DNA of 26,939 bases from an uncultured Ruminococcus sp. (GTDB taxonomy: Bacteria; Bacillota; Clostridia; Oscillospirales; CAG-272), in NCBI GenBank assembly GCA_964431775.1, contig CAYSKU010000003.1, positions 1 through 26,939 of the forward strand. Direction: 5' to 3'. The notes beneath the pieces were generated by a model, which saw only the letters and a program-made list of their open reading frames with translations, was not told the DNA's origin and ran no database searches. The position numbers were made by a program, and so were the translations under genes. Numbering within the stretch: the stretch's first letter is position 1; each line of letters starts with the position of its first letter. Positions 791-22,173 of this stretch are shown here, in pieces.

Positions 791-1127
791 GCGATCTGAG
801 ACCGCAAGCATGGATCGGCATTCGTGAAGCTTGGGTTGGAAGACGACCCACGACAATATTATATGTGCGGATCTATTGTAACGCATTCTCCTTCAGTCGG
901 CGTCGTCGCCATAAATGGCGACCGCGACAGCTCCCTCCCGGAGGGAGCCTAAGGCTACAAAATCTGCACCAATAACATTGTCGTGGGATATCTTCCAATT
1001 TCGACTTCACGAACGCCGATTCCTGCCTGTCGGCTCAGCAGACAAGTTTGCACCAATAATATTGTCGTGGGATATCTTCCAATTTCGATTTCACGAACGC
1101 CGATTCATGCGCCCCGCCTCAGGCGGG
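791..1127. repeat. Composite repeat: H + core(+, 814-869) + module B (~871-953) + core(-, 965-1020) + core(-, 1049-1104) + H(-, 1113-1127)
   Basis: Direct alignment by eye to the other copies; inverted arrangement. Confidence 0.9.
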
Positions 1128-1156
1128 TTGCGTATTTGGGGAAAGTGGTGTATAAT
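1128..1156 (+). promoter_or_regulatory. sigmaA-type promoter for the DUF5107 gene
   Basis: TTGCGT (1128-1133), 17 nt, TATAAT (1151-1156); RBS AAGGAG at 1186-1191. Confidence 0.65.
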
Positions 1157-1199
1157 AGGGTGATGATCTCGAACGTTAAGTTATAAAGGAGAAACAGAT

Positions 1200-3227
1200 A
1201 TGCTGAAATTCACGGAAATGCGCTTGCCGGCGGCTGACCTCGGTACACCGAACGTCCTCCCCGACGTTCGCGCAGGCTATCCCTCGGGCGATACGCCAAA
1301 CGCCCTCCCCGACACGCGCTCCGACCTCCGTCCCGACGAGACCGCATGGGTGCATAAGGGAAGGATACACTGTATGCTTCCGTATACCATGCAGGACGGC
1401 TATAACAGAGTGCTTACGGAAAAGCCGCTCAAGACCGCCGTACTCGAGAACGAGTTCCTTCGTGCGGAGTTCGCGACAGGTCTCGGCGGACGACTTTGGT
1501 CGCTCTACTCGAAGACGGAGGAGCGTGAGCTTCTTTTCAGAAACAACGTCTTCCAGCCGGCTAACCTCGCACTTCGTAACGCATGGTTCTCCGGCGGTAT
1601 CGAGTGGAACATCGGTATCATAGGTCACCATCCGTTCACCTGCTCACCGCTGTTCACCGCACGGTACAAGAACGCCGCCGGAGGCGAAACGTTGAAGATG
1701 TACGAGTACGAGCGAAAGCGCGGTATAGTGTATATCGTCCGCGCAACGCTTGCACGCGATAACCTCCTCGTCCGCGTTACTATAGAGAACCTCTCGGCTG
1801 AGGATACCTACGTCTACTGGTGGTCGAACGGCGCGTACCTCGAAACGCCCGACAGCCGTGTCATCGTTCCGGCAAAGACCTACTACAGCTACCCCTGGCG
1901 TGACGGCGTGCCGATGGTCGAGACCCCCGACGTTCCGGAGGGCGCGTATTATCCTGCCGCACACGACCACGCATACGACTACTTCTACCGTATGGAGGAG
2001 GGTCGTCACCGCTTCATGTCGTACTACAACGGAGAGGGAAAGGGCTTCGTGCAGTTCTCGACCGCAAACGAGCTCGGACGTAAGCTGTTCGTCTGGGGTA
2101 CGGAAAAGGCAGGAGGACGGAACTGGAACCGTTGGCTCTCGCATGACGACCGCTGCTACGCGGAGCTTCAAGCAGGTCTTCTGCATTCGCAGTCGGAGCA
2201 GAGACCGATGAAGGCAGGGGAGGTCATCGAGTGGACGGAGGGCTACGCCGCCTCGTCCGGCGACCCTGCTATCCTGCACGGTGCGGACTACGATGCCGCC
2301 GGACGCTACGTTGAGTCGCGCATAGTGGAGGACGGACGTATAGAGCTGGTCTGCACGGCTGATGCGTACTTCACTCCGGTCGAGGCGGAGGAGCTCGTCA
2401 GCTACGGCTCGGGCTGGGGCGCACTCGAGGAGCTTGCGCGCAGGAAGGCAGGAAGGAGCGACTGGCGACTGAGTACGAGTGCCGTCTTCCCGATAGAATC
2501 GGTCTACGGCAAGGCGGAGGAGGACTTCCTCAGGCTTCTCGAGGAGGGTCATCTGCCGTCACGTCCCGCGACGATCTCGGAGGGAGACGTTATCGAGTAC
2601 GGAGCAGGAGGGCGCATCATACACGCGCTCGAGCTGACGGAGGGCAAGGACTGGTACACTTGGCTACAGCTCGGCTGTGCGTACTACGAGGCGCGGTCGT
2701 TCGACGCGGCGCGGATGGCGTTCGAGAAGTCGATACGTGAGACGGAAAACCCGATCGCGCTACGCACGCTTGCGTGGATATACGCCGCCGATGCGGAACG
2801 CTACGGTGACGGACGTATCAGGGAGGGCGTAGGCTTGATGAAGAGGGCGGTCGAATTAGGCGGCACGGGCTACGTGCGTCTGATCATTGATGCGATACGC
2901 TATATGCAATCGTTCGGTACGGATGAGGACATAGCTGCGATGATCGAGGGGTGCGGTGCTGTGGTACGGCAAAACGGACGTATCGCGCTGTTCTACGCAC
3001 AAAGTCTCGGCAAGCTCGACAGGCTTGACGAAGCGGTATCGATCATGCGTTCCGCGCCGGAGGTATCGGACATTCGAGAGGGCGAGGTCTCGACCTCGGC
3101 GATCTGGCTCGAGCTATATCGAAAGGTGATCGCACGTGACGAGCAGCGTTCGGCAGAGTGCATCACCGACGACGAGATATTCGAGAAATACCCCATCCCC
3201 CACACCATCGACTTCCGCATGAGCTAA
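1200..3227 (+). CDS. DUF5107-domain protein with C-terminal TPR-like helical repeats
   Basis: N-terminal LENEFLRAEF..LGGRLWSL..ELLFRNNVFQPANLALRNAWFSGGIEWN is characteristic of DUF5107 as recalled; C-terminus has a TPR-like pattern (W.QLG.AYY.A..F.AA..AFEKSI); strong RBS. Confidence 0.7.
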   Translation: MLKFTEMRLPAADLGTPNVLPDVRAGYPSGDTPNALPDTRSDLRPDETAWVHKGRIHCMLPYTMQDGYNRVLTEKPLKTAVLENEFLRAEFATGLGGRLWSLYSKTEERELLFRNNVFQPANLALRNAWFSGGIEWNIGIIGHHPFTCSPLFTARYKNAAGGETLKMYEYERKRGIVYIVRATLARDNLLVRVTIENLSAEDTYVYWWSNGAYLETPDSRVIVPAKTYYSYPWRDGVPMVETPDVPEGAYYPAAHDHAYDYFYRMEEGRHRFMSYYNGEGKGFVQFSTANELGRKLFVWGTEKAGGRNWNRWLSHDDRCYAELQAGLLHSQSEQRPMKAGEVIEWTEGYAASSGDPAILHGADYDAAGRYVESRIVEDGRIELVCTADAYFTPVEAEELVSYGSGWGALEELARRKAGRSDWRLSTSAVFPIESVYGKAEEDFLRLLEEGHLPSRPATISEGDVIEYGAGGRIIHALELTEGKDWYTWLQLGCAYYEARSFDAARMAFEKSIRETENPIALRTLAWIYAADAERYGDGRIREGVGLMKRAVELGGTGYVRLIIDAIRYMQSFGTDEDIAAMIEGCGAVVRQNGRIALFYAQSLGKLDRLDEAVSIMRSAPEVSDIREGEVSTSAIWLELYRKVIARDEQRSAECITDDEIFEKYPIPHTIDFRMS

Positions 3228-3228
3228 G

Positions 3229-3438
3229 GTCGCCTGAGGCGACAGGCAGGCATCGGCGGTCGTGCAGTTGAGATCGCAAGATATCCCACGACAATATTAT
3301 TTGTGCAGGGTCATCGGCGGCAGCCTGAGGCTGCACACGGTCATCGGCGTTATTTCGGTCGAAATTGAAAGATGACCCACGACAATATTATTTGGTGCAG
3401 ATCTGTTGCTGACGTTTTGTCCTGTGCAGACCGCACGT
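3229..3438 (+). repeat. Two tandem H+C units (cores 3252-3307 and 3343-3399) plus shared tail TGCAGACCGCACGT (3425-3438)
   Basis: Hairpins GTCGCC-TGA-GGCGAC (3229-3243) and GCAGCC-TGA-GGCTGC (3320-3334); cores align to consensus. Confidence 0.9.
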
Positions 3439-3478
3439 AATAAATATGTTAGAAACGCAAGCGTTTCCTTCAATTGAT

Positions 3479-3560
3479 GCCCCTGCGCGGGGCGGCGCAC
3501 AAGGGGACTTAGTCGAAGCCCCCTTGTGAATCTCCCCGACCAGAGGCGTTCCCCCTCTGG
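3479..3560. other. Cluster of three GC-rich hairpins (REP-like), unrelated to the H/C family
   Basis: GCCCC/GGGGC (3479-3493), CACAAGGGG/CCCCTTGTG (3498-3528), CCAGAGG/CCTCTGG (3540-3560). Confidence 0.5.
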
Positions 3561-3585
3561 ACACTCCCTTTCGTGCAGTTAAGTA

Positions 3586-3733
3586 GGGGAGAATACCGAC
3601 TATCGTTTCAGTCAGTTCGTATATACCTACGAGTTGGGGTGACGTCAGCTTTCACAAAGTGAGCCGCATACGTTTTAGCGAACGGACGGAGAGGATACCA
3701 ATGGTGACGGATACGTAGTGAGGTATTCTCCCC
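3586..3733. ncRNA. Candidate structured ncRNA or MITE: 148 bp closed by a perfect 12-bp inverted repeat
   Basis: GGGGAGAATACC (3586-3597) / GGTATTCTCCCC (3722-3733), with further imperfect internal pairing. Family not identified. Confidence 0.3.
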
Positions 3734-3789
3734 GTCTATACGTAAAGCTTAGACTTATATACCGTCTGTAGACCAACGTTTATCTTAAA

Positions 3790-5799
3790 ATGAAAAACAT
3801 ACCTTTCAAGCTCACCGCCCCGTATTCCCCGACAGGGGATCAGCCGGAGGCGATAGAAAAGCTCACCGCAGGAATAGAGGCAGGTATGCGCTACCAGACC
3901 CTCCTCGGTGTCACAGGCTCGGGCAAGACCTTCACTATGGCAAACGTCATTGCTCGTCTGAACCGCCCGACCATAATCCTTTCACATAACAAGACCCTCG
4001 CGGCGCAGCTCTGCTGTGAGTTCCGCGAATTCTTTCCCGAAAACGCAGTCGAATATTTCGTCTCGTACTACGATTACTACCAGCCCGAGGCATACGTCCC
4101 CGGTAAGGATATGTATATCGAAAAGGACTCCTCCGTGAACGACGAGATCGATAAGCTGCGCCACAGCGCGACCTCCGCTCTCTTCGAAAGACGTGACGTC
4201 ATAATCGTGTCGAGCGTGTCGTGCATATACAGCCTTGGCCCTCCGGAGGAGTACGCCGGACAGGTCATCGGACTTCGACCCGGTCTCGAGCTGTCGATGC
4301 GTGAGCTAATGGCTCGTCTCGTCTCGATAAGCTACGAGCGAAACGACGTGCAGTTCGTCAGAGACAAGTTCCGTGTCCGCGGTGACGTTATCGAGATATT
4401 TCCGGCAGACTATTCCGAACGAGCGATACGTGTCGAGTTCTTCGGCGACGAGATCGACCGTCTGTCCGAGTTCGATCCGCTGACGGGACAGGTACGCGAA
4501 TACCTGACCTACGCGCCGATATATCCGGCGACCCACTACGTCGTCGATCCGACGATGCGCGAACGTGCGTTCGAGGAGATCGAGAATGAGCTTGAGGAGA
4601 GGGTGGAATGGTTTCGTTCGCAAGGGAAGCTCCTCGAGGCACAGCGCATAGAGGAGCGCACACGCTACGACCTCGAGATGCTTCGTGAGGTCGGCTTCTG
4701 CTCCGGTGTCGAGAACTATTCCCGAGTTTTTGCAGGACGTGCGCCGGGTTCGACGCCGTACACGCTCCTCGACTATTTCCCCGACGACTACATCATGTTC
4801 ATAGACGAGAGCCACGTTACGATACCGCAGGTCGGCGGCATGAGCGGCGGCGACCGTGCGCGAAAGAAGAATCTTGTAGATCACGGCTTCCGTTTGCCGT
4901 CAGCCTACGACAACCGACCGCTGACGTTCCCCGAATTCGAAGGGAAGCTGAATCAGGTCATCATGGTCTCCGCGACCCCTGCCGAATACGAAGCGGAGCA
5001 TACCGAGCAGGTCGTTGAGCAGATCATCCGTCCGACCGGACTTGTAGATCCTGAGGTAGAGGTACGTCCGGTCGAGACGCAGATAGACGATCTGCTGATC
5101 GAGATACGGGAGCGAGTGAAGCGCGAGGAGAGAGTTCTTGTCGCGACACTGACCAAAAAGATGGCGGAGGACTTGACGGAATACCTTGACGACAACGGTA
5201 TCCGTGTGAAGTACATCCACCACAACGTTGACACGATGGAGCGGACGGAGCTGTTGCGCGATCTGCGAATGGGGCTGTTTGACGTGCTTGTGGGAATAAA
5301 TCTTCTCAGGGAGGGAATAGACCTGCCGGAGGTGACACTTGTAGCTATACTTGATGCGGACAAGGAGGGACTTTTCCGAAGCACACGTTCGCTGATACAG
5401 ATGATCGGACGAGCGGCGCGGAACGCGAACGGGCGAGTGATACTGTACGCGGACAAGATAACGACCTCGATGCGCGAGGCGATAGAGGAGACGGAGCGAC
5501 GTCGCACCATACAGCAGGCGTACAACGCGGCGAACGGCATCACGCCGAGGACGATCGAGAAGAAGATCGGAGGACTGATCAAGATCGCGGCAACGGACGA
5601 GGGAGAGGCGGTCGCGCCGAAGAAGCGTGGACGTCGCAAGGCGGAGCCGGCGGTCGTTGAGAATGCGGTGACGGGCGAGACGCTCGAATCACAGCTCGAG
5701 CGACTGCAAGCCGAGATGCTACAGGCGGCGAAGGAGCTTCGCTTCGAAGAAGCGGCGTTCCTTCGCGACAAGATAAGTCGGCTGAGGTCGGCGGTCTGA
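3790..5799 (+). CDS. uvrB: Excinuclease ABC subunit B
   Basis: PTGDQPEAI, Walker [25 protein letters not shown] beta-hairpin, IDESH, C-terminal UVR coiled coil ([13 protein letters not shown]). Confidence 0.98.
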
Positions 5800-6087
5800 G
5801 ACCGCAGGCATGAATCGGTGTTCGTGAAGTTGAAAGTGGGAGATATCACACGAGGGTGGAGTTGGTGCAGGTCTGGTCTGCTGACGAGACGATATGGTCA
5901 CACGTGTATGAGCCTCCCTTCGGGAGGGAAGGAGAGCGCGTTACAATAGACTTGCACAAATAAAATTGTCGTGGGATATCTTTCAACATAAACTGAAAGT
6001 GCGCCGATGACTGCCTGTCGCCTCAGGCGACCCGATGACTGCCTGTCGCCTCAGGCGACCCGATGATTGCCTGTCGCCTCAGGCGAC
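5791..6087. repeat. Composite repeat: H (loop is the uvrB stop) + core(+, 5814-5869) + shortened module B (5909-5950) + core(-, 5953-6008) + three 28-bp H units (6004-6087)
   Basis: Direct alignment; unit CCGATGACTGCCTGTCGCCTCAGGCGAC x3, with one mismatch in the third. Confidence 0.9.
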
Positions 6088-6150
6088 TCTGCACAGCACT
6101 GAATTTCAGCGGTCATTGTTGACCGCAATTATTTTTTTACATTATAAGCC

Positions 6151-6178
6151 TTGCCTAACGGCGGATTTATGGTATAAT
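6151..6178 (+). promoter_or_regulatory. sigmaA-type promoter upstream of galactokinase
   Basis: TTGCCT (6151-6156), 16 nt, TG-n-TATAAT (6170-6178). Confidence 0.6.
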
Positions 6179-6369
6179 ATACGTAAAAGAGGAATTTTCG
6201 AGCTCGTCCTCTCACGTATGGTCTCACGATGACCTACAGCGGACGAAGCTTCGTTCCCCTACAGCTACATAACTACTCAACAAAACGAACGAGCCGCAGA
6301 GCGGTACGTGTATGTGTACGTGCCGTGTGGAGCGATCCCGCGTCCTGCGGTCAAAGAAAGGAATCTGCC

Positions 6370-7668
6370 ATGACGATCTCCGAACTCAAAAAGAAGATAC
6401 TCGACGGCGGTATCGACGAGACCCTCGTAAACGGTCTGTCCGTGCCTGCCGATAAGATACCCACACAGCGCGAACGCTACGCCAAGGCGACCGACGAATT
6501 CGTCGCCCTCTACGGTGACGGTGATGTCTCCCTCTACTCCGTTGGCGGCAGAAGCGAGATATCCGGTAACCATACCGACCACAACTTCGGTCGTGTAATT
6601 GCCGCAAGTGTCAACCTTGACGTGCTTGCTGTCGTTAAGAAGACCGAGGACGGCGTTATCCGCATAAAGAGCGAGGGCTTCCCCGAGGATATCGTTTCCC
6701 CCGAGGCTGCCGAAGCTCCCGACGAGGCTAAGTTCTTCACCTCGGCGGCGATCATCGCCGGTATGGAGCGTGCGTTCCTTGACGCCGGCTACGCGGTCGG
6801 CGGCTTCGATGCGTACACTACGTCAAACGTCCTCAAGGGCTCGGGCATAAGCTCCTCTGCGGCATTCGAGGTAATGGTCGGCAATATCCTGAACTACCTC
6901 TACAACGACGGACGTGTCTCGAACGTTGAGATCGCGAAGATGGCGCAGTTTGCCGAGAACAAGTTCTTCGGCAAGCCGTGCGGACTTATGGATCAGACCG
7001 CCTGTGCGGTCGGCGGCTTCATCACCATCGACTTCGAGGATCCCACCGAGCCTGTTATCGAAAAGCTCGACTTCGACCTCACTGCCGCGGGCTACAGCCT
7101 CTGTATCGTAAATACCGGCGGCAACCACGCAGACCTCAACGATGATTACGCCTCCGTTCCCACCGAGATGAAGGCTGTTGCCGCAAAGCTCGGCGTTCCC
7201 GTGCTTCGCAAGACCGACCGTGAGGCTCTCGACAAGGCTCTTGCCGAGGACGGCGCGTCACTTCGCGAGGATCCGGGCGACCGCGCTATCATGAGAGCGT
7301 ACCACTTCTTCGCGGAGAACGAGCGTGTAGCCGCTCAGGTCGAGGCGTTGAAGAAGGGTGACGTTTGCGGCTTCCTGTCCGGCGTTACCGCCTCCGGAAA
7401 CAGCAGCTTCAAGTTCCTCCAGAACGTTTACACGACAAAGAACGTTGGTGAACAGGGACTTTCCCTTGCACTTTGCCTTGCGGAGCGCATGACGGGTGAG
7501 TTCGGCGGTGCTTGCCGCGTTCACGGCGGCGGCTTTGCCGGAACTATACAGGCGTTCATCCCGACCGACAGGACAGCGGAGTTCGCCGCAAGGATGGACA
7601 GCATATTCGGCGCAGGCGCAACTCACATCCTCAGCGTTCGCAAGAACGGTGCCTGCAAGATCTGCTAA
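6370..7668 (+). CDS. galK: Galactokinase (GHMP kinase family); start revised from 6229 to ATG 6370
   Basis: GRSEISGNHTDH, GSGISSSAAFE, GKPCGLMDQ and RVHGGGFAGT motifs; RBS GAAAGGA just upstream of 6370. Confidence 0.88.
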   Translation: MTISELKKKILDGGIDETLVNGLSVPADKIPTQRERYAKATDEFVALYGDGDVSLYSVGGRSEISGNHTDHNFGRVIAASVNLDVLAVVKKTEDGVIRIKSEGFPEDIVSPEAAEAPDEAKFFTSAAIIAGMERAFLDAGYAVGGFDAYTTSNVLKGSGISSSAAFEVMVGNILNYLYNDGRVSNVEIAKMAQFAENKFFGKPCGLMDQTACAVGGFITIDFEDPTEPVIEKLDFDLTAAGYSLCIVNTGGNHADLNDDYASVPTEMKAVAAKLGVPVLRKTDREALDKALAEDGASLREDPGDRAIMRAYHFFAENERVAAQVEALKKGDVCGFLSGVTASGNSSFKFLQNVYTTKNVGEQGLSLALCLAERMTGEFGGACRVHGGGFAGTIQAFIPTDRTAEFAARMDSIFGAGATHILSVRKNGACKIC

Positions 7669-7672
7669 TTCT

Positions 7673-7890
7673 GTCGCCTGAGGCGACAGGCAGGTATCGG
7701 CGTACTTTCAGCTTAGATCGAACGAGCTCCCACGATGGGATGGTTTGTGCAGACTTGGTCTATAGACTGTATGCTTTTTGCAGACCGCACGTTATTTTAT
7801 TATGCTTGCGGTGACACGTTATCATCGTGGGATCGCTCTACTGTATGGCTGAACGTAAGCCGATCCATGTCCGCGGTGACACGCCGCCGC
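7673..7890. repeat. H + core(+, 7696-7751) + tail + degenerate core(-, 7809-7864) + decayed hairpin
   Basis: GTCGCC-TGA-GGCGAC 4 nt after the galK stop. The reverse copy keeps ATCGG and CCCACGA with the same spacing as intact cores but has lost TGCA. Confidence 0.8.
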
Positions 7891-7910
7891 GAAGAAAGGG
7901 TATTTTGTAA

Positions 7911-8285
7911 ATGAGATCAAAGGGAAAGCTGCGCCGACTTGGTGTATTGTTTTTGAATTTCGTCCTGTTCTACGTTCTGCTTCGGCTGATAATACTGCTT
8001 GCCGGACGGACGGGGATAATGGCGATATACTATATCGGGGTGACCCTGTATACGCTTGGCGCAGGAGCGGTGTTCATCACGTTCTTCTGCCTGAACGGCT
8101 ACACCGTGAACAACGTTGACCGAACGGCGGACGACCTCCCCGAGAGGTGGACGGACGAGCGAAAGCGCGAGTTTTTGGCGGCACAGCCGGAGAGGCGCAG
8201 GAAGGCACGTCAGCTCATGTACGTTCTAATGCCGATGGTGGTGACGCTCCTCATAAGCTATATCGAGCTCAGCTTTTTCAAGTGA
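7911..8285 (+). CDS. Hypothetical membrane protein (124 aa, 2-3 TM segments)
   Basis: Purine-rich RBS GAAAGGG, hydrophobic segments, 15 nt upstream of rlmH. Confidence 0.7.
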   Translation: MRSKGKLRRLGVLFLNFVLFYVLLRLIILLAGRTGIMAIYYIGVTLYTLGAGAVFITFFCLNGYTVNNVDRTADDLPERWTDERKREFLAAQPERRRKARQLMYVLMPMVVTLLISYIELSFFK

Positions 8286-8300
8286 GAGGGGCGGTGCATC

Positions 8301-8783
8301 ATGCTCAAATTGACGATAATCGCCATGGGACGACTGACTGTCGGGTATTTTCGCGAGGCTTGCGAGGACTATCTTCGCAGGATGTCGCGGACGTACAGCG
8401 TGACTGTCGTAGAGCCGAAGCCGGAGCCTCTTCCGAAGGAGCCGACGGAGGGGGACATAGCCCGTGCGCTCGAGCGTGAGGCTGTTCGCATACGAGAGGC
8501 GATACCTCCGCGAGCGGTGGTGATCGCGATGTGTGTAGAGGGGCGTGAGCTGTCCTCGGAGGAGCTTGCGGCACGTCTTGACGGCTACGCATCGTCCGGC
8601 GTATCGGAGGTATGCTTCATCATAGGCTCGTCGCACGGCTTGGATGCCGCGCTCAAGACCTCCGCCGCGCTTCGCCTGTCGGTCTCACGCATGACCTTTC
8701 CGCACGAGCTGTTCCGCGTTATGCTGTTCGAGCAGCTCTACCGCGCCTCCGAAATAAACTCCGGCACTCGCTACCACAAATAG
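8301..8783 (+). CDS. rlmH: 23S rRNA (pseudouridine-1915-N3)-methyltransferase
   Basis: SPOUT signature: FIIGSSHGL, LSVSRMTFPHELFRVMLFEQLYRA, terminal RYHK; 160 aa. Confidence 0.95.
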   Translation: MLKLTIIAMGRLTVGYFREACEDYLRRMSRTYSVTVVEPKPEPLPKEPTEGDIARALEREAVRIREAIPPRAVVIAMCVEGRELSSEELAARLDGYASSGVSEVCFIIGSSHGLDAALKTSAALRLSVSRMTFPHELFRVMLFEQLYRASEINSGTRYHK

Positions 8784-8787
8784 GCGG

Positions 8788-9010
8788 GTCGGCTGAGCCG
8801 ACAGGCGGTCATCGGCGTTCGTGAAGTCGAGACTTTAAGACATCCCACGACAATATTATTGGTGCGGATTTGGTCTGCTGAGTCGGCTGAGTCGCCTGAG
8901 CCGACAGGCGGTCATCGGGTCGGCTGAGCCGACAAACGGTCATCGGCGTTCGTGAAGTCGAGACTTTAAGACATCCCACGACAATATTATTGGTGCGGAT
9001 TTGGTCTGCA
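8788..9010 (+). repeat. Two identical cores (8811-8866, 8942-8997; 131-bp spacing) with interspersed H units
   Basis: Direct comparison; the first hairpin starts 4 nt after the rlmH stop. Confidence 0.92.
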
Positions 9011-9025
9011 TAAGGTAACATCATC

Positions 9026-9865
9026 ATGGAACAATTATTGAGAACAAGATCGCATATCGGAGCAACAGAGCCGTTTAAGCTCCTGCATATCTCCGATACT
9101 CACCTCTGTCTCGCGGACGACCGCGATGACAAACGCAAAAACGACCTTGCCGTGAGCCGTTCGAGGGTGTTCGGTGACGGCATGGATGCACTGCGCTGGA
9201 GTGCGGACGTTGCACGTGAGAACGGTGCGCTGCTCGTCCACACCGGCGACCTCATCGACTTCGTTTCCTACGCGAATCTCGATGCGGCAAAGCGGTTCAC
9301 CGATGAGAACGACTGCTTCTTCGCGGCAGGAAACCACGAATTCAGTCTGTATGTCGGTGAAGCGTGGGAGGACGAGGCGTACCGTGAACAGAGCCTTGCA
9401 CGTGTACAGGCGGCATTCAAGAACGATATCCGCTTCTCCTCACGTGTCGTTTGCGGCGTGAACCTTGTCGGTATAGATAACTCCTACTACCGCTTCGACA
9501 GGCTCCAGCTCGACCTATTGAAGCGTGAGGTCGAGCGCGGTCTCCCGATACTGCTGTTCATGCACGACCCGATGCACACGGACGAGCTCTTCCGCTACAT
9601 CCGTGAGGAGCGCGGCGACCGTATCGCGTATCTTGCCGCGACTCCACGTGAGCTTTTGTCGGATTACGATGACTACCGCTTCCGTCAGCAGTGTCCGGAC
9701 GATATAACGGTCGAGGCGGCAGAATATATCGCAGGAGAACGCTCGATCCGCGCTCTGTTTACGGGACATCTCCATTTCAGCTACGAGGTGTCGTACTACG
9801 GCAGAACGCAGTACGTGACAGGCGGCACGGGACACCGTATCGCCCGACTGATCGAGATAGATTAG
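9026..9865 (+). CDS. Calcineurin-like metallophosphoesterase
   Basis: Metal-binding motifs in order: HISDTH, TGDLID, GNHE, FMHDP, GHLH. Confidence 0.88.
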   Translation: MEQLLRTRSHIGATEPFKLLHISDTHLCLADDRDDKRKNDLAVSRSRVFGDGMDALRWSADVARENGALLVHTGDLIDFVSYANLDAAKRFTDENDCFFAAGNHEFSLYVGEAWEDEAYREQSLARVQAAFKNDIRFSSRVVCGVNLVGIDNSYYRFDRLQLDLLKREVERGLPILLFMHDPMHTDELFRYIREERGDRIAYLAATPRELLSDYDDYRFRQQCPDDITVEAAEYIAGERSIRALFTGHLHFSYEVSYYGRTQYVTGGTGHRIARLIEID

Positions 9866-9918
9866 TACCACAGCAATACCTTAGTACCACAGCAATACCT
9901 TAGTATCACAGCAATACC
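9862..9918 (+). repeat. 19-bp tandem repeat x3 (TTAGTAYCACAGCAATACC)
   Basis: Units at 9862, 9881 and 9900; one substitution in the third. Confidence 0.95.
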
Positions 9919-9928
9919 AAACTACACA

Positions 9929-11728
9929 TTGACCGAGAAAAAAAGGAAAGGCAAACGTTTCGTGAGATATTTTTTCGTTAGATTCAAAGGACAGCTCCTG
10001 CGGCTGCTTGCGGCAGTGTCGGTCTTCGGAGTGGCTCTGCTCGTGCTTCTGTATTTTCTCGGCTATTACGATCTCTCCTTCCTCGACCGCTACAAGGTAC
10101 TCGGTGAGCTTCTGAACGAGCCGCAGACCTCACAGTCGCAGACACAGGGCAATATCTCCGCGCTGTTCGACCCCTCATCGCTCCTCGGGGACGACCCTAC
10201 CTCTGATATCACGCTGCCCGATCCCTTTGCAGGTGACGGGGATGTGTCGGGGGAGGTCGGCGCACCTGACGATGTCGCCGACACGTCCGAGGGGGAGATC
10301 GGCGGAGCGGATGTGACGAGCTACGAAAGCACCTCCGTCAAGCGTGTGTTCGATGCCACACGTCTTCCCGACAAGCTGTTGTCCGAGCTTCGTTCGGGTT
10401 CGATGACCGTTTCGGAGCTTGAGGCGGACGGCTATCGCACGTGCGGTATATCGTATTCGGAGGCAGGGCTTTCGTTCGCGCCCTCCGATGAGAAGGAGAG
10501 CGAGGAGGATGCGCCGACCGTTTCGTCCGGCTACTACACGCCGGGAGAGACCGTACTCGGGCGACTGACGTTTTCGTTCCAGCTTCCCGACTCACTGTCG
10601 AAGCGCAGGAGGCAGGAGGTACGCGAGGAGGTAGTCGCGCCGTCCGATGACGGAGAATGGTATGTGGAGACACATACGGTACGTTCGATCAGACCGGCGG
10701 TCGAGCTGTACATGGGCTACATCATGCTCGATGACGGAAAGGAGCTGTCGCTGATAGCCTCCGATGCGACGCCGCTCTGCAAGATAGACGAGCGGGTATA
10801 TTTTCCGGCATACGAGCGTGACAGGTACGACCGTCCTCTTTTCTACCGCAAGACGGAGAGTGGGGAGAGGGTATACCTGTACCTTGCGCCGAGCGGTCTT
10901 AACTTTGTAGCCTCGTCCTATGACGAGGTCGCGGACGGTCGCGGTCTGTCGTTCGACTATCCGTCCTACTACGGAAGGTCGGATTCGGCGGTGACGACCG
11001 ACCGAAACGGAGTTACGGGGCGCATGGCGTACGTACTGCGCGGAGTCGGTATGCTGACGGGGTACGACTTTACGAGGGCGTACTCGTTCACGGAGGGCTA
11101 TGCGGCGGTGACGACTCAAAAGAACCGCGGCGGTCTATACTATATCGACGAGAGCGGCAAGCGTGCGTTCGAGACGTGGCGTTACTACTTCAACGAGCAC
11201 GGACGAGACGTTTACGAGAACCTGATGCCTCCGCTGACGAACGGTATCGAGAGCATCGGCTTCTACTATTTCGACCACGGCTTGACGAGGGTACGCAGGC
11301 AGGTGATCGATGCGTACAACTGGGCGTATGTGGGGAGGGTCCGCACGACCAAGGATGAGCAGGTGCTTCTCCGCCCGGACGGCTCGGAGTACGAGCTTCC
11401 GGCAGGGTACGCTCTCGAGGGGTACTCTGACGGCTGTATCCTTTTATCGAAGGACGGTCTGTACGGCTTCACGGACTACACGGGCGAATGGATAGCGCAG
11501 CCGATATACAAGTCGGCAACGCCGTTTGTCGGCGGACTTGCGACACTGACGACCGAGGACGGACGTGTCGGCATGATCGACACGGAGGGGAACATCGTTT
11601 TGCAGTTCACCTTCGACTACATCTCACAGGTCTCGGACGGACTCGTTGCGGCGTACCGTATCGAGAACGGCTGGACGGTCTTCAAGCTGATGGAAAAGGG
11701 GACTGCAAGCGGCGTGGGACGTGCGTGA
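9929..11728 (+). CDS. Membrane-anchored WG-repeat-containing protein (TTG start, uncertain)
   Basis: Basic N-terminus plus TM helix; C-terminal repeats such as FTEGYAAV, YSDGCILLSKDGLYGFTDYTGEWI, FVGGLATL..GRVGMIDTEGNIV. Confidence 0.72.
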   Translation: MTEKKRKGKRFVRYFFVRFKGQLLRLLAAVSVFGVALLVLLYFLGYYDLSFLDRYKVLGELLNEPQTSQSQTQGNISALFDPSSLLGDDPTSDITLPDPFAGDGDVSGEVGAPDDVADTSEGEIGGADVTSYESTSVKRVFDATRLPDKLLSELRSGSMTVSELEADGYRTCGISYSEAGLSFAPSDEKESEEDAPTVSSGYYTPGETVLGRLTFSFQLPDSLSKRRRQEVREEVVAPSDDGEWYVETHTVRSIRPAVELYMGYIMLDDGKELSLIASDATPLCKIDERVYFPAYERDRYDRPLFYRKTESGERVYLYLAPSGLNFVASSYDEVADGRGLSFDYPSYYGRSDSAVTTDRNGVTGRMAYVLRGVGMLTGYDFTRAYSFTEGYAAVTTQKNRGGLYYIDESGKRAFETWRYYFNEHGRDVYENLMPPLTNGIESIGFYYFDHGLTRVRRQVIDAYNWAYVGRVRTTKDEQVLLRPDGSEYELPAGYALEGYSDGCILLSKDGLYGFTDYTGEWIAQPIYKSATPFVGGLATLTTEDGRVGMIDTEGNIVLQFTFDYISQVSDGLVAAYRIENGWTVFKLMEKGTASGVGRA

Positions 11729-11803
11729 GTCGAATATCAACGTGATTTAAATTTTTAATTTAAATAAAAGTAAAACAACAAAAAAACGAAAGAGGTAAGG
11801 AAT

Positions 11804-12355
11804 ATGCCTATATTTGGTAAGAAAAAGAACGAGAACGCGGAAAACGAAAAAGAGAATCCGGCAGTTGAGAAGGAAGCTGCGGCGGCTGAGCCTGAGACTG
11901 CGGTCGAGGAGCAGGGAGCGTCTGCACAGGGAGCGAGAAAGTTCGAGACGCCAGAGGGCTTTGATTTCAACAGATATTTTCTGGCTGAGAGACGGATCGT
12001 GCTTGAGAACGTAAGCTACGAGGTACATCCGGCGCAGCCGAGCACGAGCATGAAGCTGAACGGCAAGGACACGATCATAGCGCAGATCGCCGGACAGGCA
12101 GGAGTCAAGGTAACGTACAACCGCACGCTACAGTTTGAGCCGGAGGGACCGTTCTCCCTGTCGGTATCCTTTGCGGTGATGCTCGTATTCAACCCGGGTA
12201 CGAGAGACGAGGTCGATTGGAAGACCATTGACGTTGCGAACGAGTTCCGCAAGGCTTGTCCCGCGCTCGTAAGCTCCATGATGAGCCGTTCGACCCTTCT
12301 CGTAGCCGAGATAACCTCCGCCTCCGGTGGCGCACCCATCATCCCCATGAAATAG
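11804..12355 (+). CDS. Hypothetical protein (183 aa), possibly SecB-like fold
   Basis: RBS GAGGTAAGGA; acidic disordered N-terminus; C-terminal LLVAEITSASGGAPIIP. Confidence 0.75.
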   Translation: MPIFGKKKNENAENEKENPAVEKEAAAAEPETAVEEQGASAQGARKFETPEGFDFNRYFLAERRIVLENVSYEVHPAQPSTSMKLNGKDTIIAQIAGQAGVKVTYNRTLQFEPEGPFSLSVSFAVMLVFNPGTRDEVDWKTIDVANEFRKACPALVSSMMSRSTLLVAEITSASGGAPIIPMK

Positions 12356-12359
12356 GTCG

Positions 12360-12609
12360 GCGGCGTGACGCCGCAGGCAGTCATCGGCGCACTTTCGGTT
12401 TAAATTGAAAGATATCCCACGACAATACCATTTGTGCAGGCTCGTCTTGAGGCTCCCTACGGGAGGGAGCTGTCGCGGTCGCCATTTGTGGCGACGACAG
12501 CGACTGAAGGAGAGTGCGTAACAATAGATCTGTACAAATAAAATTGTCGTGGGTCGTCTTCCGATTTTGACTGAAATAACGCCGATGTCTGCCTGTCGGC
12601 TCAGCCGAC
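12360..12609. repeat. Composite repeat: H + core(+, 12383-12438) + module B (12449-12530) + core(-, 12531-12586) + H(-, 12595-12609)
   Basis: Direct alignment; module B here is a near-identical reverse complement of ~871-953. Confidence 0.92.
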
Positions 12610-12655
12610 CGCATTTCCTATCTATTATACCACTATATTATAGAAAAGTAACCTA

Positions 12656-14713
12656 ATGAAAAAAAAAGATCAATATAATAACCAATCGATAACATCGTTA
12701 AAGGGACCTGACCGTGTGCGAAAAAGACCTGCGGTCATTTTCGGCTCGGACGGTCTTGAAGGCTGTGAGCATTCCGTTTTCGAGATCCTCTCAAACTCTG
12801 TCGATGAGGCTAAGGAGGGCTTCGGAAACGTTATAAATATTACCGCGTACCGTGACAAGTCCATCGAGGTCGAGGACTTCGGGCGCGGTCTTCCCGTCGG
12901 CTGGAACGAAGCCGAGAACCGCTGGAACTGGGAGCTCGTCTACTGTGAGCTTTACGCCGGCGGCAAATACGACAACAACTCCGACGGCTCGGCTTACGAG
13001 TATTCGCTCGGTCTGAACGGTCTCGGTGCTTGCGCGACACAGTATTCGAGTGAGTATTTCGAGGTACGCTCCTATGACGGAACGAACGTTTCGGAGATAC
13101 ATTTCGAAAAGGGCGAGCCTGTCACGGAGCTGACGGTCAGACCCCTTGAAAAGCGCGAGAAGCGCACCGGCACTGTTCAGCACTGGAGACCAGACCTTGA
13201 CGTCTTCACCGACATCGACATTCCGCGTGAATACTTCACCGATATGCTGAAGCGTCAGGCAGTCGCGAACCCCGGGATACATTTCGTCTTCCGTTGGGAG
13301 GTCGAGACTCCGCCGGAGGGGAGCGAGGATAGTGCGAAAAGGTCAAAAAAGAGCGCGAACGTTCCCGAAAGGTATTTCGAGACCGAGGAATTCTACTACG
13401 AGAACGGTATCGAGGACTACGTAGCGGAGGTTGCGGGTGACACTGCCGAAACGAAGGTCGCACACTTCCACCTTGAGACGAAGGGTCGTGACCGTGCGGA
13501 CATGAAGGACTACAAGCTCCTTGTTGACGTTGCGTTCACGGTATCGAAGACCGTCCATATGCTCGAATACTACCACAACTCGAGCTTTCTCGAGCATGGC
13601 GGCTCACCCGAACGTGCGGTAAAGACGGCGTTCGTATACGCGATAGACAAGAGGCTCAAGGCGACCGGAAAGTACAACAAGAACGAAGCGAAGATAACGT
13701 TCCAGGATATCGAGGACTGTCTGATACTCGTGACGAACGGCTTTTCGACACAGGCCTCCTACGCGAACCAGACCAAAAAGGCGATCACGAACTCGTTCAT
13801 CGCGGAGGCGATGACGGACTTTTTGAAGGAGCAGCTCGAGTATTTCTTCGCGGAGAATCCGCTCGATGCGGACAAGCTGACCGCGCAGGTACTCGTGAAC
13901 AAGCGTTCGCGTGAGCAAGCGGAATCAACGAGGCTCAATCTAAAGAAGAAGCTGACGTCATCGACAGACGTAGCAAGCAGAGTTGAGAAATTTGTAGCGT
14001 GTCGATCGAAGGATGCGGCGGTACGTGAGCTGTATATAGTTGAGGGAGACTCGGCTATGACGTCCTGCAAGCTGGCGCGCAACGCGGAGTTTCAGGCGAT
14101 AATTCCGGTACGCGGAAAGACGCTTAACTGCATGAAGGCGACCTACGACCGCATATTCAAGAGTGACATAATAGTCGATCTGCTCCGAGTTATCGGGTGT
14201 GGTGTCGAGATACAGACGAAGAACAAGTCTGACATGGTGCCGTTCGACATGGCGAATCTGCGGTGGTCGAAGATAATCATATGCACCGATGCGGACGAGG
14301 ACGGCTTCCAGATACGGACGCTGCTGTTGACGTTATTCTACCGACTTCTGCCGACCCTGTTAAAGGAGGGGCGCATATACATTGCGGAGTCGCCGCTCTA
14401 CGAGATCACTCCGGCGAAGGGCGAGTCGCTGTTTGCGTACAACGAACCCGAAAAAGCGGAGATCATAAAGAAGCTCGAAGGGTCGAAGACGAAGTACACC
14501 CTGCAACGTTCGAAGGGGCTTGGTGAGAACGAGGCGCAGATGATGTCGAAGACGACGATGGATCCGGCATCGCGCCGACTGATCCGAGTCACGCCGTCCG
14601 ATGCGGCTGAGACCGCACGTATGTTCGAGCTCATGCTCGGCGACGATCTTGCCGGACGTAAGCGGTACATTGCCGAGCACGGTGCCGAATACCTCTCCGT
14701 CGCCGACATATAG
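12656..14713 (+). CDS. Type IIA DNA topoisomerase subunit B (GyrB/ParE family; gyrase vs topo IV not resolved)
   Basis: GHKL ATPase motifs (EILSNSVDE, DFGRGLP, LYAGGKY, GLNGLGA), TOPRIM ELYIVEGDSA, PVRGK, ICTDADEDG, QRSKGLGE. Confidence 0.92.
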   Translation: MKKKDQYNNQSITSLKGPDRVRKRPAVIFGSDGLEGCEHSVFEILSNSVDEAKEGFGNVINITAYRDKSIEVEDFGRGLPVGWNEAENRWNWELVYCELYAGGKYDNNSDGSAYEYSLGLNGLGACATQYSSEYFEVRSYDGTNVSEIHFEKGEPVTELTVRPLEKREKRTGTVQHWRPDLDVFTDIDIPREYFTDMLKRQAVANPGIHFVFRWEVETPPEGSEDSAKRSKKSANVPERYFETEEFYYENGIEDYVAEVAGDTAETKVAHFHLETKGRDRADMKDYKLLVDVAFTVSKTVHMLEYYHNSSFLEHGGSPERAVKTAFVYAIDKRLKATGKYNKNEAKITFQDIEDCLILVTNGFSTQASYANQTKKAITNSFIAEAMTDFLKEQLEYFFAENPLDADKLTAQVLVNKRSREQAESTRLNLKKKLTSSTDVASRVEKFVACRSKDAAVRELYIVEGDSAMTSCKLARNAEFQAIIPVRGKTLNCMKATYDRIFKSDIIVDLLRVIGCGVEIQTKNKSDMVPFDMANLRWSKIIICTDADEDGFQIRTLLLTLFYRLLPTLLKEGRIYIAESPLYEITPAKGESLFAYNEPEKAEIIKKLEGSKTKYTLQRSKGLGENEAQMMSKTTMDPASRRLIRVTPSDAAETARMFELMLGDDLAGRKRYIAEHGAEYLSVADI

Positions 14714-14716
14714 TCG

Positions 14717-14852
14717 GGCGGCTGAGCCGCCAGACGGTCATCGGGGCGGCTGAGCCGCCAGACGGTCATCGGCGTTCGTGAAGTTTAGGCTGAAAGCGAT
14801 CCCACGACAATATCATTTGTGCAGGGCAGCTGAGCCGGCGGTCTCAGACCGC
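14717..14852. repeat. Two 28-bp H units + core(+, 14768-14823) + reverse H (14838-14852)
   Basis: GGCGGC-TGA-GCCGCC at 14717 and 14745, starting 3 nt after the stop codon. Confidence 0.9.
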
Positions 14853-14949: not shown

Positions 14950-16455
14950 ATGCTGAGATCAACATTGCATCTTCATCCCGCTTTTACTGTCGGAGATGTC
15001 GATCCGCGTATCTTCGGCTCGTTCATCGAGCATCTCGGTCGTGCCGTGTATCACGGTATCTACGAACCGGATCACCCGACCGCCGATGACGAGGGCTTCC
15101 GCGGCGACGTCCTCGAAATGGTCAAAAAGCTCGGTGTGCCGATCGTTCGCTACCCGGGCGGTAACTTTGTTTCCGGCTACCGTTGGGAGGACGGCACAGG
15201 CGACCGTGCAAAGCGTCCGCGCCGTCTCGAGCTTGCATGGGGCGTTACCGAAACGAACGAGGTCGGTATCGATGAATTCCAGAGCTGGTGCAAAAAGGCA
15301 GGCTCCGAAGTCATGATGGCGGTCAACCTCGGTACTCGCGGACCGGAGGAGGCTCGTCAGCTCGTTGAATACTGCAACCACCCGGGCGGAACCGAGTATT
15401 CGGATCGTCGTCGTGCAAACGGCTTCGAGGAGCCGTTCGGCATCAAGGTATGGTGTCTCGGTAACGAGATGGACGGCTCGTGGCAGATGGGTGCGAAGAC
15501 CGCGACAGAGTACGGTCGTATCGCCGCAGAGGCGGCAAAGCTCATGAAGTGGACAGACCCGTCCATTGAGCTTGTAGCCTGCGGTGCATCGGGCTACGGT
15601 ATGTGCGGTGACTGGGAAGCGGAGGTACTTCGTCACGTTTACGATCACGTTGACTACATCTCCCTTCACAGCTACTACGGCAACCCTGCGAACGACACCC
15701 CGACGTTCCTTGCCTCGAGCCTCGACATGGAGACGTTCATCCGCACGGTCTGCGGCATTGCCGACTACATCAAGAAGATCAAGCATTCGAACAAGACGAT
15801 GTATCTGTCGTTTGACGAATGGAACGTATGGTTCCACAGCCACGGCGTTCCGTTTGAGAAGTGGTCTGTCGCGCCGCCGCAGCTCGAGGACATATACACG
15901 TTCGAGGACGCGCTCGTTGTCGGCTGTCTGATGATGACTCTGCTTCGCCACTGTGACCGCGTAAAGATGGCTTGTCTTGCACAGCTGGTGAACGTCATAG
16001 CACCGATCATGACGGAGAACAGCGAAAACGGCGGACGTTGCTTTGCACAGACGATCTTTTATCCGTTCATGTATATGTCGCGCTACGCACGAGGCACAGT
16101 GCTTGACGCCAGAGTCGTCTGCGACAAGTATTCGACCGCGCACGTCAAGGATGTACCGTACATCGAGTCACTCGCGGTGCTTCACGAGGACACGTCCGAG
16201 CTTGACATATTCGCGGTGAACCGTTCGCTTGACGAGGACAGCGACTTTACCATCGATCTGTCCGCGTTCGGCAGCTCTGTCGAGGTGATCGAGCATATCA
16301 CGATGACCAACGACGATCTCAAGGCTGTGAACACTGCGGACGATCCCGAGAACGTCATACCCGAAGCGAACGGTGATGCGACCGCAAGCGGCACGACCCT
16401 CACCGCGACCCTCGGCAAGCACTCCTGGAATATGCTCCGCGTAAAGGTCGGCTGA
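14950..16455 (+). CDS. abfA: Alpha-L-arabinofuranosidase, GH51
   Basis: IFGSFIEHLGRAVYHGIY, RYPGGNFVSGYRWEDG, WCLGNEMDG (acid/base), LSFDEWNVW (nucleophile), AQLVNVIAPI; RBS GGAGG. Confidence 0.95.
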   Translation: MLRSTLHLHPAFTVGDVDPRIFGSFIEHLGRAVYHGIYEPDHPTADDEGFRGDVLEMVKKLGVPIVRYPGGNFVSGYRWEDGTGDRAKRPRRLELAWGVTETNEVGIDEFQSWCKKAGSEVMMAVNLGTRGPEEARQLVEYCNHPGGTEYSDRRRANGFEEPFGIKVWCLGNEMDGSWQMGAKTATEYGRIAAEAAKLMKWTDPSIELVACGASGYGMCGDWEAEVLRHVYDHVDYISLHSYYGNPANDTPTFLASSLDMETFIRTVCGIADYIKKIKHSNKTMYLSFDEWNVWFHSHGVPFEKWSVAPPQLEDIYTFEDALVVGCLMMTLLRHCDRVKMACLAQLVNVIAPIMTENSENGGRCFAQTIFYPFMYMSRYARGTVLDARVVCDKYSTAHVKDVPYIESLAVLHEDTSELDIFAVNRSLDEDSDFTIDLSAFGSSVEVIEHITMTNDDLKAVNTADDPENVIPEANGDATASGTTLTATLGKHSWNMLRVKVG

Positions 16456-16542
16456 GCCGACGGGCGGTCATCGGCGTTCGTGCAGTTGAAATTGGGAGAT
16501 ATCCCACGACAATTTCATCTATGCAGATCTAGGCGGTCTGCA
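16447..16542 (+). repeat. H (loop is the abfA stop) + core(+, 16470-16525) + tail
   Basis: GTCGGC-TGA-GCCGAC at 16447-16461; TGA at 16453-16455 ends the ORF. Confidence 0.92.
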
Positions 16543-16658: not shown

Positions 16659-16993
16659 GTCGGCGGTCGGTGAAGTCAAAATTGTATGATATCCCATGAT
16701 GGTGTAGATAATGCGTTATAATAAAGCAATTCTAAGCTTAATGTAACGCACTCTCCTTCAGTCGTCGTTGTCGCCTCAGCCGATCTTATAGACCAAGTCT
16801 GCACAAACTCCACCATCGTGGGATATCTCCCAACTTAAACTGCACGAACGCCGATTCATGCCCATCGCCTCAGGCGACCCGATGACTGCCTGTCGGCTCA
16901 GGCGACACGATTCATGCACCAATAACATTGTCGTGGGATGTCTCCCAACCTAAACTGCACGAACGCCGATTCATGCCCGTCGCCTCAGGCGAC
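16659..16993. repeat. Degenerate core(+, 16659-16715), partial module B (16742-16775), cores(-) at 16800-16855 and 16915-16970, H units to 16993
   Basis: Direct alignment; the terminal hairpin overlaps the TAG stop of the minus-strand ABC gene by one base. Confidence 0.88.
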
Positions 16994-20278: not shown

Positions 20279-20609
20279 GCGGTCTGAGACCGCTCGTCGC
20301 CGTTGTCGCCACAAATGGCGACCGTGATGCCTCCCTCCGGGAGGGAGGGGGACCGCGTAAGCGGTGGAAGGAGAGCGCGTTACAATAAATTTGCACCAAT
20401 AACATTGTCGTGGGATATCTTTCGACCCAAGCTTCACGAACGCCGACTATGCCTGTCGCCTGAGCCGACCCGATTCATGCCTGTCGTCTCAGGCGACCCG
20501 ATGACTGCCTGTCGTCTCAGGCGACCCGATGACTGCCTGTCGCCTCAGGTGACCCGATGACTGCCTGTCGCCTCAGGCGACCCGATGACTGTCTGCGGTC
20601 TCAGACCGC
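20279..20609. repeat. H(+, 20279-20293) + module B variant + core(-, 20392-20447) + six ~28-bp H units (20443-20609)
   Basis: Units start at 20443, 20470, 20498, 20526, 20554 and 20582. Confidence 0.92.
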
Positions 20610-21877: not shown

Positions 21878-22173
21878 AGCTTGGGTCGAAAAATATCACA
21901 CGACAATGTTATTGGTGCAACCTTGGTCTACAGAGCCGCCTGAGCCGACAGGCATGAATCGGCGTTCGTGAAGTTGAGGTTTGAGGATGACCCACGAGGG
22001 TGGAGTTTGTGCAGTCTGCAAAGGCAAACGTTCTATAGATACCGTGCAGTCTGCAAAGGACAAAATTTCTGTAGACAAGTTTGCACCAATAACATTGTCG
22101 TGGGTCATCTTCCAACTTCAACTTCAAGTGCGCCGATGACCGCCGCCGATGACTGCCTGCGGTCTCAGACCGC
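21841..22173. repeat. H + cores(+) at 21864-21919 and 21958-22013 + core(-) at 22082-22137 + reverse H (22159-22173)
   Basis: Direct alignment; the first unit overlaps the last codons of the desulfurase. Confidence 0.92.

Follow-up and report, generated by a model that had tools for sequence, protein, structure and literature searches.

A repetitive extragenic palindromic (REP) sequence combines a 5' GT[AG]G tetranucleotide with a palindrome whose base composition varies. RAYT transposases recognise such sequences, which replicate as inverted doublets and commonly show compensatory changes (PMC3686654, PMC3116915). The element studied here, a small hairpin with a TGA loop, recurs in a contig of an uncultured Ruminococcus sp. 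(CAYSKU010000003.1, assembly GCA_964431775.1). This stretch of 26,939 nucleotides, hereafter the window, is one whole contig (26.9 kb) of a 2.41-Mb draft genome (301 contigs, 53% G+C, 80% complete). In E. coli, REP sequences protect mRNA from 3' exonucleases or have effects on termination. Another group of comparable repeats comprises BOX (boxA-boxB(n)-boxC) of Streptococcus pneumoniae and Firmicute repeats such as RUP and bcr1, which are modular, non-coding and intergenic and contain an iterated unit. BOX, RUP and bcr1 have no known transposase. The hairpin in the window is almost certainly the head of a dispersed repeat. The explanation favoured here, at slightly less than even confidence, is that it is the cis-acting head of a lineage-restricted, very-high-copy, modular intergenic repeat, which is REP/BIME- or BOX-like in kind and is constrained as DNA.

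The anatomy of the repeat was derived by alignment of the hairpin flanks. A 15-nt hairpin and a 13-nt linker ending in C-N4-ATCGG form a 28-nt head unit, which is present in one to five tandem copies (head spacing was 28 nt in 133 cases and 30 nt in 51 cases). The head is followed by a 56-nt core, which contains the near-invariant word CCCACGA and ends in TGTGCAG. A profile search of the draft genome returned 1,199 head-core arms, 887 of which were near full length. Heads and cores together occupied 101.8 kb, equal to 4.2% of the assembly and 5.7% of the element-bearing contigs. The arms were always oriented '><' (heads outward, cores inward) and never '<>', their centres were variable, and 98 clean heads-outward composites had a median span of 348 bp. 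Many single arms and arrays were also present, and arms were found in tandem, convergent and divergent gaps alike. An earlier note on this DNA had described a hairpin module; the hairpin itself stood, but its free-standing nature did not, as it forms the 5' head of this longer repeat. No further conserved hairpin, whether a second or a third, was supported in the core: RNAalifold showed the head hairpin alone, and candidate core pairings had no covariation across the 887 copies (normalised mutual information (MI) of 0.05 or less). The Rfam 15 covariance models gave only a chance snoRNA match in the window, which lay within a gene (E 0.74).

The seven TGA-loop hairpins from which the family had first been recognised were all present, with their positions and arms correct (the one at 1113 reads TCA on the plus strand). 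Perfect hairpins with a 6-bp stem and a 3-nt TGA or TCA loop numbered 27 in the window, and 25 of them were family members; those at 6746 and 20662 were chance palindromes outside the family. The draft genome contained 1,241 such hairpins (645 TGA and 596 TCA), and the runner-up loop reached 125. Nearly all hairpin copies in the genome belonged to one of eight stem types, each perfectly complementary, namely GTCGGC (336), GCGGTC (218), GTCGCC (198), GCAGCC (156), GGCGGC (139), GCGGCG (98), CCCGCC (33) and GCCGCC (9). According to our own reading of this list, at least nine paired changes separate the eight types, and some of them are G:C to C:G flips; the flip of the closing pair at 12360 (stem GCGGCG) was recovered as first described. 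The first stem position was G in 97% of copies and the fourth in 100%. Hence, the earlier view of a varying stem held for positions 2, 3 and 5, and for position 6 in one type only, whereas positions 1 and 4 were not free.

The family resembles REP, BIME and REPIN sequences in its high-copy extragenic palindromes, its variable and compensated stems, its occurrence, beside many single arms, as inverted doublets and higher-order mosaics, its species-specific sequence, its lack of target duplication and its location close to gene ends. REP palindromes are preceded by GT[AG]G, whereas the family has no GT[AG]G consensus. The commonest four bases before the stem were T, C, G and G, only the last of which reached 77%, and they are remains of the previous linker ATCGG; on the opposite strand, CTGCCT precedes the stem. 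Further differences from REP are the 6-bp palindrome with a fixed 3-nt loop, the attached 56-nt unstructured core, the Bacillota host, and the fact that no RAYT or Y1 gene was found in the 80%-complete draft. In addition, the copies are near linkage equilibrium, whereas REP copies form a master-copy quasispecies. Because the tetranucleotide is absent and no RAYT has been found so far, the family is not filed as REP, but it works like one in kind. The modular build with a tandemly iterated unit resembles pneumococcal BOX; the head unit is iterated ahead of a single core, and the likeness extends to kind only. The family differs from BOX in a copy number about ten times higher, in heads that abut stop codons and in a covarying mini-hairpin with an invariant loop.

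The maintenance of pairing was evaluated with a stem-blind search, in which only the loop and the downstream linker were used as anchors. Among the 1,266 heads found, 93.6% of the stem cells were paired and 80.3% of the stems were perfect. The proportion of perfect stems fell to 0% after a slide of the 3' partner by 1-3 nt and to 14.5% when the right arms were re-dealt among copies (maximum of 17.9% in 500 shuffles). Of 80 aligned positions, 42 were polymorphic, most with two common alleles; in the other 38, which were near-invariant, rare variants did not exceed 1.5%. Of the 887 copies, 866 were distinct. Polymorphic sites had lost their linkage within some 12 nt, the mean normalised MI having dropped to 0.035 at 10-12 nt. 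For the three stem pairs that vary, which are 6, 10 and 12 nt apart, the normalised MI was 0.73, 0.82 and 0.67, respectively, compared with averages of 0.035-0.08 for sites at 6-12 nt that do not form stem pairs. Stem positions that were closer but unpaired reached 0.36-0.48, below the paired ones. Therefore, the stem pairing is very probably actively maintained. The copies act as a recombining population, and the stem pairs are the sole long-range linkage in an otherwise freely recombining repeat. A mean identity of 71% was considered as a sign of old copies and was ruled out, the divergence being combinatorial shuffling of two-allele sites with rare variants at about 1% per site. A triplex or mirror-repeat relation of the linker to the stem arm was also rejected, as stem and linker columns were unlinked.

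The intermediates between stem types were also counted. A single unpaired change was present in 92 heads, against 1,037 perfect stems. Arms of two stem types were mixed in 90 heads, and many of these types differ at one pair, so that such heads are also intermediates. A new, perfectly compensated stem was found in 17 heads (12 kinds), where about 0.1 would be expected from two independent hits, an excess of about 100-fold. This excess fits either strong selection or a process that alters both arms together, for example one in which one arm templates the other. The earlier proposal that structure and loop are kept, rather than the stem sequence, agrees with the paired changes, the stem-pair linkage and the compensated stems, and its two options, selection or regeneration by template switching, are both compatible with the excess. 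Single unpaired changes (92) outnumbered rare compensated stems (17); both were rare relative to the perfect stems, and the loop did not vary freely. The pattern that the earlier note had named as refuting its proposal was not observed.

Public contigs from animal gut metagenomes (three DNA runs and one RNA run, from four studies) were used to compare strains. The same heads were present at the same gene ends in strains that were 98-99.9% alike. Within DNA that was otherwise 99% identical, orthologous copies toggled at polymorphic sites of three loci. Positions 8804-8805 accounted for two toggles, and one fell at about 8992, inside the core; four others occupied the 13-nt linker (7688-7700). 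The four in the linker belong to the 7673-7754 element and distinguish it from its counterpart in a 99.1%-alike strain. Such toggling, limited to three loci, is what short-patch conversion between copies would give. The same contigs bear on the idea that chimeric copies were produced by an assembly or binning artefact. The draft consists of 301 contigs, contigs break at these repeats and 566 kb of contigs are element-free, all of which would suit an artefact. However, contigs extend to the same heads, placed at the same gene ends, in independent runs of four studies, a contig of another run spans the 7673-7754 element with 100% identity, and another reproduces its locus-specific core, so that an artefact is scarcely credible.

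A pure mutational by-product was considered next to these data. Quasipalindrome correction and short-patch ectopic gene conversion would then produce the pattern without selection for structure or loop and without a dedicated enzyme. The excess of compensated rare stems over the two-hit expectation, the 90 heads that join arms of two stem types, the toggling between strains, the decay of linkage within about 12 nt, the 9-nt slippage copies of arm and loop, the arrays of 28-nt units and the failure to find an enzyme in the draft are all in its favour. This explanation leaves unaccounted for the origin of about 1,200 copies in nearly every intergenic gap of one species. Nor does it explain why about 38 near-invariant positions, including the unpaired loop and C-N4-ATCGG, lie beside freely polymorphic neighbours, or why other short inverted repeats in the core have not been perfected. 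It was regarded as unlikely.

The loop and the folding of the hairpin were then evaluated. When a perfect stem and the linker served as the anchor, the loop was TGA in 1,019 of 1,054 heads. The loop varied by 0-1.5% per site, as much as the remaining invariant positions, and is therefore constrained, though not uniquely. The absence of a U-tract reported in the earlier note was confirmed: the base after the stem was A (66%) or G (31%), followed by GGCAGTCATCGG. The hairpin is of modest stability, with a folding energy of -6.4 to -8.1 kcal/mol in DNA form. As RNA it reached about -10 kcal/mol, a value no better than that of shuffles (z -0.5 to -0.9), and whole head-core arms folded no better than shuffled sequences. 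The family resembles intrinsic terminators in its GC-rich sense-strand hairpin just past the stop codon. It differs from them in that there is no T-tract, the hairpin is equally present in antisense before promoters, and ordinary terminators lie further downstream.

The placement of the heads at gene ends was explored with long open reading frames (ORFs) as gene stand-ins, the hairpin start being counted relative to the base after the stop codon. The loop was the stop codon at a start of -9 (58 cases), the stop was in the loop of the second tandem unit at -37 (26 cases) and in an ATGA variant of the linker at -23 (15 cases), and the hairpin was flush with the stop at -1 to +5 (133 cases). Sense heads were concentrated at gene 3' ends, where antisense heads were almost absent; antisense heads were placed 25-125 nt upstream of start codons. 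A TGA stop was preceded by an exact stem arm in 113 genes, where about 5 would be expected, and by an arm with one mismatch in 66 more. Roughly one gene in ten has the hairpin loop as its stop codon, and element-encoded protein tails recur, such as ...HRVG and ...AEVG. TAG was enriched among the stops adjoining heads (odds ratio 2.2, p 8e-5), which suggests that the junction sometimes falls within the stop codon, since the element begins with G. A 'stop-codon cassette' was rejected as the cause of the orientation bias: the antisense head unit also holds a TGA (in CCGATGAC), so that both orientations of the 28-nt arrays close all frames.

The gene ends were compared with those of the nearest species available (UvrB 88% identical). 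The gyrB-like protein retains its ancestral C-terminus exactly (685 aa here, 684 in relatives), its stop position is unchanged relative to four relatives, and the head starts 3 nt past the stop. The ancestral C-terminus is also exact in rlmH, whose head lies 4 nt past a stop that is TAG here and TAA in relatives. In abfA, relatives end in CTG GGC TGA or similar, whereas here GTC GGC TGA, a stem arm plus loop, forms the last two codons and the stop; AbfA ends in VG rather than LG or LV, and the protein length is unchanged. In uvrB, a partial head, four bases of linker, and arm and loop stand in place of the last seven codons, a codon-for-codon replacement that gives UvrB the element-encoded tail SRLRSAV instead of RALEAAK, with its length unchanged. 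Ordinary T-tract terminators are located at these gene ends in the relatives, and an ordinary terminator persists downstream of the uvrB composite (e.g. 6109-6136). The head motif, with 691 occurrences in this genome, was found no more than once in any of 52 further species of the genus or in any of 400 genomes drawn from 30 families of the order. For the three nearest species, samples of 30-110 kb had no TGA-loop excess, and the strict head-plus-core pattern had no match in plasmid, phage, IMG/VR and JGI metagenome contig collections.

These results bear on a role as a host-function RNA element, in which a sense hairpin in the 3' UTR (untranslated region) would shield mRNA from 3' exonucleases or modulate translation or transcription termination under per-gene selection. 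The sense heads flush with stops and the near absence of antisense heads at 3' ends agree with such a role, as do the single arms in tandem gaps, which point away from the stop of the upstream gene 103 to 30. Perfect stems were slightly commoner at stop codons (87.5%) than in antisense heads facing gene starts (81.2%; p about 0.05), and they accounted for 75-80% elsewhere. In contigs of the RNA library, rlmH and the gyrB-like gene are continuous with the first head that follows them, although DNA carry-over is possible there. However, the antisense promoter-facing heads and those in divergent gaps are kept nearly as well as the sense heads, so that an RNA-processing role is not favoured, and the loop was TGA in 91-97% of heads in every context class. 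The context-independent integrity points to a constraint on the element itself. Given this similar integrity everywhere, the sense orientation at 3' ends follows from the heads-outward architecture, of which it is a trivial outcome, and not from a function in mRNA. The missing U-tract, an RNA hairpin no more stable than shuffles, and the failure to find the family in any of the 52 congeners searched, where ordinary T-tract terminators occupy these gene ends, also argue against an RNA element. We consider it improbable, and the constraint lies somewhat more probably at the DNA level than at the mRNA level.

The heads-outward inverted pairs with variable centres could also represent a classical miniature inverted-repeat transposable element (MITE) mobilised by a DDE transposase; the two head-core arms would then be its long terminal inverted repeats. 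The 98 clean composites agree with this in their geometry. Target-site duplications were not detected at them, as the longest word shared by the flanks was no better than for shuffled partners (3.03 vs 3.06). The stem types at the two ends were uncorrelated (10 of 98 alike, 17 expected), the ends were ragged with one to five head units, many arms were single, and neither a full DDE transposase nor a multicopy ORF was found in the draft genome. Such an element is largely refuted and highly improbable. With the classical MITE excluded, single-strand (HUH) transposition is compatible with the results, as it leaves no duplication. IS200/IS605 elements, which are moved by the HUH enzyme Y1 TnpA, resemble the family in a small DNA hairpin read by shape together with nearby single-stranded bases and in the absence of target duplication. 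The family differs from IS200/IS605 in that no TnpA or TnpB was found in the draft, left and right ends are not defined, and heads are tandemly repeated. There was no fixed target word 5' of the outermost heads, whose flanks shared only the stop codon and linker remnants.

Several observations weigh against the favoured explanation of a DNA-level cis-acting head. The two arms are just 3 nt apart, so part of their linkage is physical, though closer unpaired positions are less linked. The rare-variant rate of the loop sites (0-1.5%) is no lower than that at about 20 other near-invariant positions of the element. Y1_Tnp (PF01797) had no match in the 80%-complete draft, with a control that matched in 6 of 14 known genomes, and the same draft gave no match for TnpB (PF07282), RVT_1, IS110 or rve. 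The lack of a Y2_Tnp match in the draft is weak, since its control matched in no known genome. The sole DDE trace was one sub-threshold fragment, located on a contig that lacks the element. Paralogous proteins were almost absent from the draft genome. No direct evidence was thus obtained for the HUH transposase that the earlier note had put forward as an example of a partner. No insertion polymorphism or empty site was found in the strain contigs, which break at the repeats, and mobility is thus only putative.

Under the favoured explanation, the hairpin would be a constrained DNA form, probably extruded or single-stranded. By one route, the structure, the loop and the ATCGG linker would be read by a trans-acting enzyme responsible for copying, moving or converting the element; an HUH-type nuclease is a candidate because such enzymes leave no target duplication. 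A dedicated trans-acting enzyme of this type is conceivable, but on the whole doubtful. By another route, each arm would act as the template for the other when the DNA is replicated or repaired. If a head array runs into the last codons of a gene, or takes their place, its loop TGA ends the reading frame. Such gene ends are tolerated, which lets the elements build up flush with stop codons. It is also possible, though rather unlikely, that the family spreads and is homogenised free of any transposase, through templated copying in short patches, guided by microhomology, among the approximately 1,200 copies, whether by gene conversion or by template switching in replication. Such copying would overwrite gene ends that resemble arm plus TGA, as at uvrB and abfA, and the arms would template each other. 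If this were true, base-pairing epistasis would be the sole surviving linkage in a freely recombining 'population' of repeats, and about a tenth of the proteome would have had its stop codons and final residues rewritten.

The copies in the window lie between 3 and 22173. Three 109-nt tandem copies lie at the contig end on the plus strand (3-83, 112-192 and 221-301), and the first is a head-core arm with its head at 3-17 (stem GTCGGC; nhmmer E 5e-23). A plus-strand arm with an imperfect head at 795-872 is the left arm of a heads-outward composite (795-1127). It is followed on the minus strand by arms at 962-1040, with an imperfect head (GTCGGC/GCAGAC), and at 1047-1127 (head 1113-1127, stem CCCGCC), the latter facing the promoter of the gene that starts at 1200. 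At the other end of this DUF5107 gene (1200-3227), a plus-strand arm at 3229-3309 (head 3229-3243, stem GTCGCC) begins 1 nt past the TAA stop, and another plus-strand arm occupies 3320-3402 (head 3320-3334, stem GCAGCC). The uvrB stop is the loop at 5797-5799, which belongs to a plus-strand feature at 5779-5872 comprising a partial head unit (GTCGGC-TGA-G) and a head-core arm (head 5791-5805, stem GCGGTC). The right arm of the corresponding composite (5791-6087) is on the minus strand at 5951-6087, with three tandem 28-nt heads (6017, 6045 and 6073; stem GTCGCC). The plus-strand arm at 7673-7754 (head 7673-7687, stem GTCGCC) lies 4 nt past the galK stop, and its partner at 7816-7885 on the minus strand is decayed (E 1e-6). 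The one 4 nt past the rlmH stop, at 8788-8869 (plus strand; head 8788-8802, stem GTCGGC), is followed on the same strand at 8873-9000 by 9-nt slippage copies of left arm and loop, a chimeric head at 8891 (GTCGCC/GCCGAC) and a head-core arm with its head at 8919-8933.

In the second half of the window, the plus-strand arm at 12360-12441 (head 12360-12374, stem GCGGCG) starts 4 nt past the stop of a 183-aa gene. The minus-strand arm at 12528-12609 (head 12595-12609, stem GTCGGC) faces the start of the gyrB/parE-like gene (12656). Two tandem heads (14717 and 14745; stem GGCGGC) and a core occupy 14717-14825 on the plus strand, 3 nt past the stop of the gyrB-like gene, and a lone head hairpin at 14838-14852 on the minus strand (stem GCGGTC) faces abfA. 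The final two codons and stop of abfA (16447-16455) are the left arm and loop of a plus-strand arm at 16447-16528. On the minus strand, 16797-16993 comprises an arm with mismatched heads (16797-16878) and one at 16915-16993, whose head (16979-16993, stem GTCGCC) overlaps the TAG stop of an ABC/FtsX gene (16993-20019, minus strand). A lone plus-strand head hairpin at 20279-20293 (stem GCGGTC) is followed by a minus-strand head-core arm with five 28-nt heads at 20389-20609. These heads are perfect at 20567 (GTCGCC) and 20595 (GCGGTC), the rest having one mismatch, and they face an aminotransferase gene (20717). Two plus-strand arms at 21841-22015, namely 21841-21920 (head GTCGGC) and 21935-22015 (chimeric head), lie within and just past the 3' end of that gene, and the minus-strand arm at 22080-22173 has its head at 22159-22173 (stem GCGGTC).

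Other features were observed within and around the repeat. The core holds a promoter-like match (TTGAAA, 16 nt, GACAAT; 9 of 12) directed to the centre of the intergenic gap, with examples in the window at 42-69, 151-178, 260-287, 3268-3295 and 16486-16513. A third module is located between inward-pointing cores. Its CCTCCC-N-GGGAGG hairpin, which has 184 copies across the genome, precedes GGAGAGCGCGTTACAAT, and a GTCGCC...GGCGAC hairpin may or may not be present; in the window the module is found at 870-948 (minus strand), 5912-5960, 12450-12535 and 20290-20395. This module is older than the head-core family, because a look-alike sits downstream of uvrB in a relative (L064). Heads and cores were both absent from 94 contigs (566 kb, a quarter of the assembly; e.g. 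C9, C15, C18 and C24), whose G+C content was lower and more scattered (0.514 +/- 0.029 vs 0.539 +/- 0.018); these contigs may be mis-binned or recently acquired DNA. The relatives G043 and G049 have their own palindromic terminator-like repeat (GGGGAGACC TTTTTGCAAAAA GGTCTCCCC), with six or more copies in 57 kb of G043. A conserved intergenic element at 3470-3545 (CCCTGCGCGGGGCGGCGCA ... AAGGGG ... CCCCTT) is found again beside other genes' ends in three or more related species, and in relatives it also lies downstream of the gyrB-like gene. No Rfam family matched it, and it may represent a structured element of the whole genus. Between phosphoesterase and WG-repeat genes, 9862-9918 holds three copies of a perfect 19-nt tandem repeat. 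A 1,260-aa frame at 23110-26892 (minus strand) without a Pfam match runs antisense to a 1,060-aa solute-binding/GH115-like gene and is probably a shadow ORF. The clusters closest to the gyrB-like protein point, if weakly, to a Bacillota host, and by our own reading the strong Shine-Dalgarno sites and extended -10 promoters agree with this.

The family represents a Gram-positive gut counterpart to REP/REPIN systems, apparently RAYT-less, at an extreme density of one arm per about 1.5 kb of element-bearing DNA. Its approximately 1,200 copies near linkage equilibrium provide an unusually clean natural test of structural epistasis. Here a non-coding repeat reshapes coding sequence: more than 110 genes end in the loop, and some proteins carry element-encoded C-terminal residues. 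The repeats also explain the assembly of the species into hundreds of contigs, and they could act as a species- or strain-specific marker in gut metagenomes.

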